Positions 51,001-57,000 of a stretch of 64,000 bases of DNA are shown here, piece after piece. A program made the position numbers. This stretch comes from a virus (taxonomy: Duplodnaviria > Heunggongvirae > Uroviricota > Caudoviricetes): IMG/VR virus record IMGVR_UViG_2877962823_000010; one strand, written 5' to 3'. The first letter of the stretch is position 1; every line of letters starts with the position of its first letter.

Positions 51001-54000
51001 CCGGAATCGACCAGGCTGCTTGAAGCTGGACAGGAAGCGATCACGTAGTATGTGTTTGTGAATTTTGTCCTGGTAAGGACTGAGTTGTTTTGTCATAATT
51101 ACTCCTGTGGATTGATCCAGTAATTCCCTCAGAATTGCATATCAATTTGCTTAAAATCCTCGGTGGCGGCCGGGGATTTTTTCTTTGTGATTTCATCAAG
51201 CGCATACTTAAAAGCCCTGCTAATCGGACTGATGTCTGATGCCATTCCGAAAGCACACAAGACCGAAGCAATAAATCTCCAGTCCGTTCTGCTTATCTTC
51301 GATTCATGACAGCCAATCATCTTTGCCAGACCGCGCTGGGTAAGCGTTGACAGGTTGATGAGTAAATCAGTTTCAGCGCGATCAATTTCTCGCTGTGATA
51401 GTTTGCTGTAACTTGTTTGTTCCATTTCTTAAGATTTCCAATAGTGAATAGCTAGTTGAAAGGTATGCGTGGAAACGCATATGGCCTTAGTTGGTCAGAT
51501 ATCTTGGGACTCGCTTTTCAGCGACGTAGGACGAATGTCCGTTGTTACAAAGAGCGGCTCCGCTTATTAAGCGGCTTTGTGCTCCGGCGGGAACACGTCA
51601 TCAAGACTTACTTTTGCGCCTAACTTGTTTAGACACGCAACAAGAGCACGGCATGTTTTAAGGTCTGGGAAGCGACGACCAGATTCCCAATGTCCGATAG
51701 CTCCCTGTGTGCATCCAACTGCCTTAGCAAGTGTTGTTTGAGAGATATTCAGTGACTCTCGATATTTTCGTAGGTTGCTCATATGCCCTCCATAGTAACC
51801 ACGAATAAAAAAATACAATATGTACTTCTCAAATACAAGTAAAAATACACATTGTGCATGGATGGTTCCAGTACAGAGCGTAATAATAAGGACATGAAAA
51901 TGAAATGGTATGAACTGGCTAGATCCAGAATGAAAGAGCTCGGCATAACTCAAGAGAAGTTAGCCGAAGAGCTAGGTATGACGCAGGGTGGAATTGGACA
52001 CTGGTTGCGCGGATCTCGTCATCCATCTCTTAGTGATATTGGTGTGGTGTTTAAATACCTTGGTATTGATAACATATCATTCAACCACGACGGGACATTT
52101 TCACCTGTTGGCGAATACTCATCGGCCCCAGTTAAAAAACAATATGAGTACCCTGTTTTTTCTCATGTTCAGGCTGGGATGTTCTCTCCAGAACTCAGAA
52201 CCTTTACCAAAGGTGATGCGGAGAGATTGGTAAGCACAACCAAAAAAGCCAGTGACTCTGCATTCTGGCTTGAGGTTGAAGGTAACTCAATGACCGCACC
52301 AACAGGTTCCAAACCTAGTTTTCCTGACGGGATGTTAATTCTGGTTGACCCTGAGCAAGCTGTTGAGCCCGGCGATTTCTGCATAGCCAGACTTGGTGGT
52401 GATGAATTTACCTTCAAGAAACTGATCAGGGATAGCGGTCAGGTGTTTCTACAACCACTAAACCCGCAATATCCAATGATCCCATGCAATGAGAGTTGTT
52501 CCGTTGTGGGGAAAGTTATCGCCAGCCAATGGCCTGAAGAGACGTTTGGGTAAAGAGGATAGATGGAGTTTAATGGCCATGAGTATCAAGCGGTCAAAAA
52601 GAAGTTCATCTATTCATTGAAAGCATAAGGCCATCTGAGTATATCCGTAATGATCTGGATATTGTCTATAACATCAATGACCGGACGATAGATATCGGTG
52701 AGCAGCGTCCTGTATGGCAGGGTGAGGCAGGTGAAAAAACGTCCTGCCATCAACAAGAATCAAGTGCATCCGCTCTCTGGACAGATGGAAAATTTATTGG
52801 ATGCAAAAAGATATGAAATAACACCTGTATAGCACGGAGCTTTCTCTGACCGATGCACTTGAAGTTGTTAGGGCTGACCCAGCCTGCTGTTTCTTTAGGT
52901 AAGAGAAAAGAGATTTAGGAGATGAAAGGTCGCAGAGGTGCGGCCTTTTTTATTGAGAGTGGATCTTGAACGGAAATTCTCAAGACTTGAGTCTTGCATG
53001 CAAATCAATTCCTGGATAAACTCGATCTGAGTCAATAACTTAGAGAGAGAGCAAATGGCAAAGTCAAACGTTAGCGTGCAGGCATTCAAGGACTTCCTTG
53101 AAGAGCTTATGTCGCTGAACATAATGAAGGAGGCCACCGCTCGAAATTTAAAAAACTCATCCGCTCGCCTCTTAACGGTAGTCCAAGAAGAGGAAATGGG
53201 TGATGTTACTCAGCTTGATGTGAATGAGCTTGCCGAGCGATACATCAACGCAACTGAGCCGAAGCCTAGCGACAGCAGCATTACTGCATATAAAAGCCGC
53301 ATGGAAAGTGCAATCAAAAAGTTTGTAGCTTTCCAGTCTGGTGAAGAAATCCCATACACTCCGATTGACAAAGAATCCAGTGAGGAAAAAGATTTGACTG
53401 GCGAACCAACAAAAGTCGAAGGCAAGGCTAATGCACTTCATACCTATGATCTTCCAGTAGTTCTTCGACCTGAATCAGGGGTTACAGTAACGATTAAAGG
53501 CATTCCTAACGATATCACAAACGAAGAAGCCGAACGCATCTCTTCAATTCTGAAGGTTTACGTTCGGCCTCAATAATGCAAAAGCATTCAGCACAATGTC
53601 CAACTCCCCAGTCCGACATTGATGCTGTTTAACCAGAGCCTCCAAAAGGAGCCCTTGTTAAGGTACACAATATTTGCGATGTAACCTTAGCGCGTCTGGT
53701 ACATTTTTTCAAGCGGTTGTAGGGCTGCCGCCAATATGAGAAAACACAGATGTCTACATACAATTTGAATGACCAATTCGATCGAGAAGTTCATGTGAAT
53801 GCCTATGAACGGATAAGGCATGGAAATCTTGAACATGTGTGTGAGCATTATCGCTCAAGGCCACACCGCTAATCATCAACCCGGCCTCCATGCCGGGTTT
53901 TCTTTTCCTCTCGCCCAAAAAAACACATAACCAATTGTATTTATTGGAAAATAAATAGATACAACTCACTAAACAACGCAATTCTGATCTCTCCTTACAT

Positions 54001-57000
54001 CGCCGAGGCAATACACCCACGCTAAAAAACAATACTATTAAATACAAAGCGTTGTAAAAAAACGCCCCGTTTTAGAACAAATTGTATTGACCAAGTGAAG
54101 TACATATCGTACTATTTAACCATCAGCAGGACGCTGGAAGCCAAATGGAACAGACTGGCAGGCTCTTTAAACAACGTCGACTCTCGACTACGTGGCTGAA
54201 AAGCCAGATCACCCAACCACATAAGCTGTGGGATGCAATGCCGAAGCAACCGTCTCAGGAGGAGCTTCGAGATTGCATCGCCAAAGTTTATTCGGGAGGA
54301 ATCTATGTCCAGAAAAACAGAATTTAAAGGCACCGCAGCTTCTCGCCGTAGAGCTCGTCGCGCAAACCTGCAAAGTCAGGAGGCGATTAGCTCCGACAAA
54401 CTACACAGGCCAACCCCATCACGAGTGGTCTTACAATGCAAACGCAAACCAGCAATGAGAGCAGAAGTAATAACACTGACAACGTTGACCAGAAAATATG
54501 AAGGCTCAACTTGTCTTCCAAATGTAGCTCTTTACGCGGCAGGCTACCGTAAATCCAAACAACTGACAGCAAGATGACTTGTGTTGGTCGCCAGAAAATG
54601 AAATTAGGCAGCAAACCACTTATTTGAGGTGATATATGGAATTTCATGAAAGTGCGATTTGTGATTTTCGCGCTAACGCAAATTCAGTAAAACCACAGCC
54701 AATTGCAGTTCTTTTTAAAACAATGGGTGCGTGGGCTGTTTTATGCTTCGCCGCTGACGACACTGACGCAAGAATGGCAATAGGACAAGAGATGGAGATG
54801 GACCCGACAAACGATGAATTCATAATTTATGGCGCTCCATCTAATTACTTACTTGATACCTGCAACATTTACAACAAGGCTGCCTGATGGTGGCCTTTAT
54901 TTTTGGCATAAACAACAGAATAAACACAGCACTGTGTATTCATTCCAACGAGTGAATACACGGAGCAATGTCGCTCGTAACTAAACAGGAGCCGACTTGT
55001 TCTGATTATTGGAAATCTTCTTTGCCCTCCAATGTGAGGGCGATTTTTTATCTGTGAGGATATGAACAGATGTCAAACATCAAAAAATACATCATTGATT
55101 ACGACTGGAAAGCATCAATAGAAATTGAAATCGACCATGACGTAATGACAGAGGAAAAACTTCACCAGATTAATAATTTCTGGTCAGACTCTGAATACCG
55201 ACTCAATAAACACGGCTCTTTATTAAATGCTGTATTAATCATGCTGGCGCAACATGCTCTGCTTATAGCAATTTCAAGCGACTTAAATGCATATGGTGTT
55301 GTGTGTGAGTTCGACTGGAATGATGGAAATGGTCAGGAAGGATGGCCTCCAATGGATGGTAGCGAAGGAATAAGAATTACCGATATCGATACATCAGGAA
55401 TATTTGATTCAGATGATATGACTATCAAAGCCGCCTGAGCGCGGCGTTACCGCATACCAATAACGCTTCACTCGAGGCGTTTTTCGTTATGTATAAATAA
55501 GGAGCACACCATGCAATATGCCATTGCAGGGTGGCCTGTTGCTGGCTGCCCTTCCGAATCTTTACTTGAACGAATCACCCGTAAATTACGTGACGGATGG
55601 AAACGCCTTATCGACATACTTAATCAGCCAGGAGTCCCAAAAAATGGATCAAACACTTATGGCTATCCAGACTAAATTCACTATCGCCACTTTTATTGGC
55701 GATGAAAAGATGTTTCGTGAGGCCGTCGACGCTTATAAAAAATGGATATTAATACTGAAACTGAGATCAAGCAAAAGCATTCACTAACCCCCTTTCCTGT
55801 TTTCCTAATCAGCCCGGCATTTCGCGGGCGATATTTTCACAGCTATTTCAGGAGTTCAGCCATGAACGCTTATTACATTCAGGATCGTCTTGAGGCTCAG
55901 AGCTGGACGCGTCACTACCAGCAGATCGCCCGTGAAGAGAAAGAGGCAGAACTGGCAGACGACATGGGAAAAGGTCTGCCCCAGCACCTGTTTGAATCAC
56001 TCTGCATCGATCATTTGCAACGCCACGGGGCCAGCAAAAAAGCCATTACCCGTGCGTTTGATGACGATGTTGAGTTTCAGGAGCGCATGGCAGAACACAT
56101 CCGGTACATGGTTGAAACCATTGCTCACCACCAGGTTGATATTGATTCAGAGGTATAAAGCGGATGAGTACAGCACTCGCAACGCTGGCAGGGAAGCTGG
56201 CTGAACGTGTCGGCATGGATTCTGTCGACCCACAGGAACTGATCACCACTCTTCGCCAGACGGCATTTAAAGGTGATGCCAGCGATGCGCAGTTCATCGC
56301 ATTGTTGATCGTCGCCAACCAGTACGGCCTTAATCCGTGGACGAAAGAAATTTACGCCTTCCCTGATAAGCAGAACGGCATCGTTCCGGTGGTGGGCGTT
56401 GATGGCTGGTCCCGCATCATCAATGAAAACCAGCAGTTTGATGGCATGGACTTTGAGCAGGACAATGAATCCTGTACATGCCGGATTTACCGCAAAGACC
56501 GTAATCATCCGATCTGCGTTACCGAGTGGATGGATGAATGCCGCCGCGAACCATTCAAAACCCGCGAAGGCAGAGAAATCACCGGCCCGTGGCAGTCGCA
56601 TCCCAAACGGATGTTACGGCATAAAGCCATGATTCAGTGTGCCCGTCTGGCCTTCGGATTTGCTGGTATCTATGACAAGGATGAAGCCGAGCGCATTGTC
56701 GAAAATACTGCATACACTGCAGAACGCCAGCCGGAACGCGACATCACTCCGGTTAACGATGAAACCATGCAGGAGATTAACACTCTGCTGATCGCCCTGG
56801 ATAAAACATGGGATGACGACTTATTGCCGCTCTGTTCCCAGATATTTCGCCGCGACATTCGCGCATCGTCAGAACTGACACAGGCCGAAGCAGTGAAAGT
56901 TCTTGGATTCCTGAAACAGAAAGCCTCTGAGCAGAAGGTGGCTGCATGACACCGGACATTATCCTGCAGCGTACCGGAATCGACGTGAGAGCTGTCGAAC

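Follow-up and report, generated by a model that had tools for sequence, protein, structure and literature searches.

A mobile prophage cassette in the cI-to-pL interval of a Shiga toxin phage: a core-binding-fold protein, a structured leader RNA, and exchangeable small genes

In lambdoid phages, the slot between the repressor gene cI and the promoter pL is the classic position for cargo expressed in the lysogen, as in lambda (rexAB), P22 (sieB), 933W (stk), HK022 (nun), and BTP1 (bstA). We analyzed a stretch of 64,000 nucleotides of the virus record IMGVR_UViG_2877962823_000010 (hereafter the window) that carries in this same slot, after cI and before OL/pL, an open reading frame (ORF) of 173 amino acids, and the question raised by the locus is what such a gene does for the prophage. 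A prediction made from the DNA alone (the original prediction) had located the ORF there and proposed an insulated gene for exclusion or defense. The ORF is indeed present: it matches H0093 of VT2-Sakai, the same gene as ECs1184 or ORF23 of the Sakai prophage Sp5, with 100% identity. The whole interval (52554 to 54100) is 100% identical to the VT2-Sakai (Sp5) immunity region and to that of many other Shiga toxin (Stx) phages, both Stx1 and Stx2, and by this identity the window is a Stx phage of the VT2-Sakai/Sp5 type. A total of 81 phage records match the interval, 44 of which cover most of it at ≥99% identity, and it was found complete in 219 of 5426 complete E. coli genomes.

Part of the puzzle has already been published. 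Mondal et al. (2016) used sacB allelic exchange in a K-12 lysogen to construct in-frame, marker-free Sp5 deletions that retained 9 nucleotides at each ORF end (PMC5155283). They obtained 43 mutants, and ECs1184 and ECs1180 were the only two genes that could not be deleted; for ECs1184, in which they found no conserved domain, the authors suggested lethality and a role in lysogeny maintenance (PMC5155283). Because the design kept 9 nucleotides at each end, the putative promoter of the cassette described below, its leader RNA, and the small ORF H0092 were left in place.

Three observations give ECs1184 the look of a regulator or antidote: it could not be deleted alone, its fold is a DNA-binding one, and a structured RNA and a small ORF follow it without exception. 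All of this points away from the effector role originally given to the 173-amino-acid protein. Our reading, which we hold tentatively and with somewhat less than even confidence, is that ECs1184 may be the regulatory (antidote-like) part of a self-contained mobile prophage cassette of the addiction or abortive-infection type. The gene stands in public records as “hypothetical,” and its resistance to deletion is published; we found no earlier account of its core-binding fold, of how large the family is, of the structured RNA that always accompanies the gene, of the exchange of small ORFs, or of the mobility among several slots. Likewise, no paper describing the leader RNA, H0092, or the fold of the family was found in the literature, and those on EcOnc, Pas, and HnrS deal with small RNAs (sRNAs) of the Q/late region and not with this locus.

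Anatomy of the cassette

Searches of Pfam, NCBIfam, and PADLOC with ECs1184 gave no significant match, and the protein belongs to PHROG 2602, of unknown function; homology to a structural or an ordinary regulatory family was looked for in Pfam, PHROG, and NCBIfam, and none was found. A word-indexed search recovered 44 family clusters, all from Enterobacterales, and an exhaustive profile search 632 clusters (representatives at 50% identity) at E≤1e-3, 235 of which remained at E≤1e-10. Among the 150 matches listed, nearly all are 160 to 200 amino acids long and align end to end with ECs1184. Conservation within the family is concentrated in two blocks flanking a variable acidic linker, the C-terminal one with the consensus PIPLRxxxxVxIxGLPxDLTxxEAxxIA.

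The AlphaFold2 model obtained with a 148-sequence alignment (mean predicted local distance difference test score [pLDDT], 89.7) has four helices in residues 8 to 94, a low-confidence linker at 100 to 128, and a β-hairpin plus helix at 130 to 168, reproducing the helical N terminus, acidic linker, and small C-terminal segment that had been read from the sequence. It replaced a first model built from 19 sequences (pLDDT, 68.8), whose Foldseek matches in the PDB were meaningless. Structure comparison identified the N-terminal domain as an integrase core-binding (SAM-like) four-helix fold, shared with tyrosine recombinases such as lambda Int, XerC/D, and IntI, so the protein is not free of recognizable motifs as had been thought. 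Weaker structural matches were to the recombinase-derived repressors MrpR and SroF, and sub-threshold Phage_int_SAM matches appeared in at most 13 of the 148 family members. In every relative with a solved structure, the core-binding domain is a DNA-binding fold.

Unlike the tyrosine recombinases, ECs1184 has no catalytic domain: one with the R-K-H-R-H/W-Y active site was not found, there is no Phage_integrase match, and the protein ends at residue 173; therefore, it is not a recombinase. SPbeta MrpR/YopR and phi3T SroF keep the full recombinase body, whereas in ECs1184 the core-binding domain is followed by the acidic linker and an unclassified ββα domain. This domain of 45 residues had no match in PDB or Pfam, the latter giving scattered DUF noise only. 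Profiles of the entire family and of just its C-terminal domain found nothing significant in the PDB, nor did a Foldseek search of the ECs1184 model against BFVD.

ECs1184 and the small downstream ORF H0092 run in the same direction, with one promoter-like site ahead of them and one terminator behind, and with a spacer of 173 nucleotides (53577 to 53749) between them in the window, and this spacer contains a structured leader RNA (Table 1). In the eight aligned sequences of the window's class, the 37 pairs are 96.6% paired, against 25 to 49% in slid controls, and 9 pairs are compensatory, against 0 to 2 in controls. A short class of 17 sequences forms a four-helix structure with 36 pairs that are 92.6% paired, against 35 to 45% with slid partners, and 17 pairs changed on both sides, against 4 to 9 in controls; the counts come from 8 and 17 related sequences, shuffle controls ignore phylogeny, and more weight should be given to the comparison with slid partners. 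That it is the sense RNA which folds is indicated by G-U pairs that are invariant or frequent and would turn into A-C on the opposite strand.

The helix order is common to the two classes, as are the blocks GGAGC…, UAGCG, and a U-run plus UCAAG (in the window, a T-run plus TCAAGC at 53704 to 53714), and in both the structure stops immediately ahead of the Shine-Dalgarno sequence of the small ORF. The unpaired blocks GGAGCAC, AGUAGCGG, and UCAAG are conserved. Covariance models of the short class find every short-class spacer and, among the related loci (designated by L-numbers; genomic context covered ~70 loci, the family being the 632 clusters), also L041 (E 5e-5), L069, a relative with 29% identity (E 2e-4), and, once the search was iterated, L037, a sister spacer of the long class (E 0.02). 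The leader of the window is likely to be homologous to this larger RNA family, judging by its position, the order of its helices, the blocks in common, and two weak intermediate matches.

No family in Rfam 15 matches the leader (window 51000 to 55500 at E≤1; 53500 to 53950 at E≤10), and in 11 relatives nothing reached the gathering score, the only match being one of 13.6 bits to IsrK in L042, which lies on the terminator. A c4-like nature of the spacer RNA was considered and dropped, as there was no Rfam C4 or IsrK match. A peculiarity of helix P1 is that its apical ~20 nucleotides (window 53600 to 53616) are reverse-complemented between variants, GTCCAACTCCCCAGTCCGAC in the window and GTCAGACTGGGGAGTTGGAC in the Salmonella copies (comparison with L031/L030/L037); the P1 stem is retained while its loop-proximal part is flipped.

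The two terminators that had been predicted to bracket the gene are both real, and their hairpins fold far better than shuffled sequence (Table 1). The upstream hairpin, GGTCGCAGARRTGCGGCCTTTTT, recurs upstream of the family gene in L031, L029, L003, L040, and L061 and in variant form in L062; it is probably where the cI transcript stops and where the cassette has its 5′ limit. The downstream one has an 8-bp stem with 6 GC pairs, AP000422 annotates a terminator there, and its region is homologous to the stretch after rexB in lambda-type prophages. The last ~220 nucleotides of the interval (terminator plus OL) are 84 to 91% identical to stretches of other lambdoid prophages, some of whose records carry a rexB annotation, so that on its 3′ side the slot ends at a conserved boundary between modules. 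As for the promoter of its own that the gene had been credited with, the arrangement of TTGCAT, 17 nucleotides, TAAACT, and GATC is kept in L031, L029, and L003, but the putative site matches only 7 of 12 consensus positions and was not reported by the consensus scan.

Several short inverted repeats overlap the −35 region of this putative promoter (TCTTGA/TCAAGA, CTCAAG/CTTGAG, CAAGACT/AGTCTTG, and TTGCAT/ATGCAA) and suggest that it may be autoregulated. In 27 upstream regions we counted TCAAG/CTTGA 38 times, where shuffles gave 12 ± 3.5; since many loci are without it in spite of the ~3-fold enrichment and GATC palindromes dominate elsewhere, a single shared operator motif was rejected. The GATC-containing palindromes (such as TTCATCGATCGATGAA and ATTGATCGAT) overlap the putative −35/−10 elements upstream of family genes, for example at 5790 to 5990 of L042 and at 53024 to 53027 of the window, and GATCGA was found in 19 of the 27 upstream regions. 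These palindromes hint at promoters that may be Dam or SeqA sensitive or operator controlled.

Exchangeable small genes and movement between slots

The 40-codon ORF predicted downstream of ECs1184 exists as well. H0092 differs from its homologue in L073 (Pseudescherichia) by 18 synonymous and 5 nonsynonymous codons (7/3/21 by codon position), and on this comparison it is a real gene under purifying selection; only 3 homologous clusters were found. In all 64 Enterobacterales loci with readable downstream sequence (64/64), the order is the family gene, a spacer of 149 to 174 nucleotides, a small ORF, and a terminator. In the more distant L066 and L067 (22 to 23% protein identity), a Lys/Ala-rich small ORF of 49 to 64 amino acids lies 230 to 310 nucleotides downstream, and compensatory changes are visible in the spacers. 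The spacer of L066 also holds, at 3485 to 3581, a gene resembling that of a tRNA with an extended variable arm (51.9 bits against Rfam tRNA; no call by ARAGORN), which is missing in the spacer of its sister L067.

We distinguished three types of small ORF, A to C (Table 1). hhalign found no homology between types B and C, type A having been compared by eye only. The variation of the type C ORF has a period of three, in keeping with purifying selection; a reading of it as “Icd-like” was dropped, since NCBIfam gives no Icd-like match for the small ORFs. Identical C-terminal domains of the large protein pair with type B in L029 and with type C in L003, and a near-identical one pairs with type A in L031. 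The same domain thus stands beside unrelated small ORFs, and the payload has been exchanged without co-variation in the protein. One locus, L034, has its type A ORF cut after 23 codons by a sequence replacement (from ~6762 onward) with the family gene and the leader intact, as expected if losing the payload is harmless.

The cassette follows an S24-type cI gene in the window, L003, L029 to L036, L040, L062/63, L068, and L074, with protein identities from 100% to 35%. Copies that are 100% identical sit behind at least five different cI alleles; the cI genes beside identical cassettes score from E 1e-101 to 1e-11 on one cI profile and are therefore different immunity alleles. Homologs do not always lie between cI and N, a point that the original prediction had left to be checked. 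In L073 the cassette is located between Q and the lysis genes, in L004 to L006, L041, L060, and L061 it adjoins tail or tape-measure genes, in L042 and its group it comes after replication or DUF977 genes, and distant copies adjoin HEPN/MNT, DUF3800, and HVO_A0114-type genes. The cassette behaves as an autonomous moron and not as a part wired into the lysis-lysogeny switch of one phage.

This distribution bears on the explanation favored by Mondal et al. (PMC5155283), by which ECs1184 would be an accessory regulator of lysogeny maintenance in Sp5, a second, recombinase-derived DNA-binding repressor that acts with cI to keep a lethal early phage function silent; the RNA and H0092 would then be incidental. 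Such a role would account for the failed deletion and for the proximity to cI in many lambdoid prophages (the window, L003, L029 to L034, L040, L062, L068, and L074). However, a gene that is 100% identical after at least five cI alleles is not tied to one immunity specificity, relatives are found far from immunity regions (Q-to-lysis, tail/tape-measure, and replication slots; HEPN/MNT and DUF3800 neighbors), and wherever it occurs the gene is accompanied by a putative promoter and by a leader RNA, small ORF, and terminator of its own, for which reasons we regard this role as unlikely.

The first part of the interval, just after cI, holds a DUF3024-family pseudogene with two frameshifts and one in-frame stop (tblastn). 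In 933W-type phages the slot reads cI, an intact DUF3024 gene, a RuvC-like gene, and stk, and E. coli strain 150 has a natural 140-bp deletion within the pseudogene that leaves the cassette intact. Stem-loops originally noted at 52700 to 52860 fall inside this decayed gene, and the folding of 52690 to 52770 is no better than that of shuffles (z −0.87), so that a regulatory role for them was rejected. The contrast between the two parts of the interval is relevant to the idea that the cassette is neutral hitch-hiking cargo without current function and the failed deletion a technical artifact, as might be argued from a negative result for which the authors give no mechanism. We consider this very improbable, given that the truly unconstrained DUF3024 gene has already decayed while the cassette belongs to a family of 632 clusters with conserved architecture, H0092 and the type C ORF are under purifying selection, and the RNA has undergone compensatory changes.

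Comparison with known systems and proposed function

The succession of a DNA-binding domain, a disordered acidic linker, and a small domain resembles the order found in type II antitoxins. The likeness to type II toxin-antitoxin (TA) modules extends to the layout, with ECs1184 (DNA-binding fold plus disordered segment) upstream and a small gene downstream in what is probably the same transcription unit, to the palindromes at the putative cassette promoter, to the reported failure to delete the upstream gene alone, and to mobility in prophage and defense contexts. The differences are that the cassette genes do not overlap but are separated by a structured RNA of 149 to 174 nucleotides, that the small ORFs match no toxin family, and that they are swapped without change in the C-terminal domain of the large protein. 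Payload exchange with an unchanged C-terminal domain argues against neutralization by specific protein-protein binding, and, as far as sequence comparison goes, a classical type II pairing is contradicted for this cassette. Type III TA systems (ToxIN and CptIN) also combine an RNA element and a protein gene in one short operon on mobile elements; in contrast to them, the RNA of the cassette is a single structured unit, with no tandem array in 53577 to 53749, and no ToxN/AbiQ-like endoribonuclease was matched in Pfam or PADLOC searches.

In the temperate phages P1/P7 (c4-icd-ant), P4 (CI RNA/IsrK-like), and N15, a structured RNA lies just upstream of a small ORF on one transcript (see also PMC3632133). 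The cassette recalls these immunity RNAs in the order of structured RNA and small ORF, and differs from them in that the Rfam models C4, c4-a1b1, c4-2, and IsrK do not match its leader and in that it is followed by a terminator instead of an antirepressor gene.

ECs1184 would act, in the reading that we prefer, by binding nucleic acid through its integrase-type core-binding domain and silencing the downstream RNA and/or the small protein, whether through autorepression at the cassette promoter and its palindromes, through the leader, or through the two at once. If control is exerted on DNA or RNA and not by protein-protein binding, the presence of unrelated payloads behind the same protein would be explained. 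The loss of ECs1184 alone would then release an RNA or a small protein that kills the lysogen or induces the prophage, and the cassette would act in lysogens as a moron of the addiction or abortive-infection type. The anatomy, the fold, the conservation of the three parts, the covariation, and the mobility are what the analysis shows; that the RNA or small ORF is toxic, what the protein acts on, and a benefit against phages are inferred.

Several observations weigh against this reading, starting with the nonoverlapping genes and the payload exchange already mentioned. Small ORFs of types A, B, and C belong to no known family and match no toxin model in Pfam, NCBIfam, or PADLOC, and they are hydrophilic. 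Even with filters off, R1 and R2, the covariance models derived from related loci, miss the leader of the window, and a helix that would hide the H0092 ribosome-binding site through the U-run is unsupported (76.8% paired, against 64% in the slid control). The failed deletion of ECs1184 is a negative result, for which the authors give no mechanism and favor lysogeny maintenance (PMC5155283). Finally, labeling of ECs1184 by polynucleotide kinase (PNK) was no stronger than that of the sfGFP control, and the protein was judged “not a strong RBP” (RNA-binding protein) (PMC7618764).

That last result comes from a 2025 paper in Nucleic Acids Research in which ECs1184 was recovered by TRAPP in the RNA-associated proteome of uninduced cultures of enterohemorrhagic E. 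coli (EHEC) at a false discovery rate (FDR) of 0.065 (PMC7618764); the protein is therefore made in uninduced cultures. The enrichment (FDR 0.065; PMC7618764) could speak for an element centered on the RNA, with the leader either processed into a regulatory RNA or serving as a riboregulator that senses a ligand or a protein and acts on the small ORF or in trans, and ECs1184 as its dedicated partner or as an upstream ORF that just supplies transcription. The strong covariation of the leader, the persistence of its structure down to 29% protein identity (L069, E 2e-4), the conservation of its unpaired blocks, and the swapping of payloads while protein and RNA stay would all fit. Yet the PNK signal equals that of the negative control (PMC7618764), the core-binding domain is a DNA-binding fold wherever a relative has been solved, and no Rfam family or riboswitch class matches, which leaves this explanation with a low probability in our judgment.

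To the same low level we assign the possibility that the 173-amino-acid protein is itself an exclusion or defense effector without toxin-antidote logic, for example by binding incoming phage DNA or hindering a recombinase or replication. ECs1184 does sit where rexAB, sieB, stk, nun, and bstA are classically found, within an insulated cassette expressed in the lysogen, its core-binding domain could compete for DNA sites, and some distant copies have defense-island-like neighbors. But a pure exclusion gene should delete freely, like rexAB or sieB, as ECs1184 did not, and the obligatory RNA and small ORF would be left unexplained. There was also no match of ECs1184 to RexA/RexB, SieB, Stk, Nun, or BstA in Pfam, NCBIfam, and PADLOC, and PADLOC-DB 2.0, which covers systems described to 2023, gave none for ECs1184, H0092, or the 44-amino-acid ORF. 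The cassette differs from the known cargo of the slot by having a putative promoter of its own and an upstream terminator, instead of being read from pRM, and by occurring also outside the slot. What stands of the original prediction is thus an insulated cargo with a putative promoter of its own in the cI-to-pL slot, whose protein is present in uninduced EHEC (PMC7618764); its assignment to exclusion or defense found no counterpart in PADLOC.

Extending the addiction or abortive-infection reading to the whole family, one might see in it a new tripartite mobile module of prophages and defense islands across phyla, in which a core-binding protein devoid of catalytic domain and a dedicated leader RNA of a new family gate interchangeable small effectors as a plug-and-play toxin-antidote or abortive-infection system, a generalization that we put forward as doubtful but with a real chance of being right. 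ECs1184 is one of two deletion-resistant genes in the main Stx2a phage of E. coli O157:H7, and considering it as part of a cassette makes this puzzle experimentally addressable. If the cassette stabilizes the lysogen or kills cells that lose it, this would bear on the persistence and induction of Shiga toxin prophages. The analysis also adds a large uncharacterized protein family (632 clusters) and a covariation-supported RNA absent from Rfam, and suggests a way in which prophage morons may exchange small effector genes under a common control unit.

Feature coordinates and neighboring genes

The plus strand of the window corresponds to the leftward direction of lambda, and the genes are ordered as cro (minus strand), cI, the interval studied here, OL/pL, nutL, and N (54305 to 54577). 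The features discussed above are collected in Table 1.

Table 1. Features of the cassette and its surroundings in window coordinates (VT2-Sakai annotation from AP000422; window coordinate = locus coordinate + 50053)
Feature	Position	Strand	Details
cI repressor gene	51852..52553 (annotated start 51900)	+	HTH_3 + Peptidase_S24; called cI in AP000422
DUF3024-family pseudogene	52563..52900	+	~81% nucleotide identity to the intact gene after cI in 933W-type phages
Upstream intrinsic terminator	52924..52953 (hairpin 52924-52949)	+	Hairpin + T-run; −15.9 kcal/mol, z −3.48
Cluster of short inverted repeats, candidate operators	52953..53003	.	Overlaps −35 region
Putative sigma-70 promoter, read from sequence	−35 52994-52999; −10 53017-53022; GATC 53024-53027	+	−35 TTGCAT, 17-nucleotide spacer, −10 TAAACT
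ECs1184/H0093 gene	53055..53576	+	ATG start; 173 amino acids
ECs1184 domains	Residues 1-100; 101-128; 129-173		Four-helix core-binding (SAM-like); acidic disordered linker; ββα domain
Structured leader RNA between the two ORFs, ~145 nucleotides	53589..53731	+	Compensatory pairs in 8-sequence alignment A10
Leader helix P1	53589-53627	+	
Leader helix P2	53632-53637 with 53695-53700	+	
Leader helix P2a	53639-53649	+	
Leader helix P3	53656-53663 with 53685-53692	+	
Leader helix P4	53713-53717 with 53727-53731	+	
H0092 (formerly ECs1183), type A payload	53750..53872	+	40-amino-acid basic His/Cys-rich protein; phrog_21154, function unknown
Cassette-ending intrinsic terminator	53878..53909 (hairpin 53878-53899 + T-tract)	+	−14.3 kcal/mol, z −3.9
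OL operators + pL (3′ boundary of the slot)	54040..54115	+	AP000422 annotation moved to window coordinates
Small ORF type A (H0092)			40-44 amino acids, His/Cys-rich; window, Salmonella L030-L034, L073, L074
Small ORF type B			47 amino acids, CxxC…CxC; L004, L029, L037-L041, L068
Small ORF type C			57 amino acids, phrog_33859; L003, L005, L006, L035, L036, L042-L064

Many Stx phages carry tRNA genes upstream of stx, a region that the window may not span, and ARAGORN called no tRNA gene in the whole 64 kb. The other gene that resisted deletion, ECs1180 (H0090), lies just downstream of N (54636 to 54887) and encodes a protein of 83 amino acids of phrog_2471, function unknown. In L053, an IMG/VR prophage, three STnc100 copies and one isrI sRNA lie at 11526 to 12460, ~5 kb downstream of the cassette and unrelated to it.

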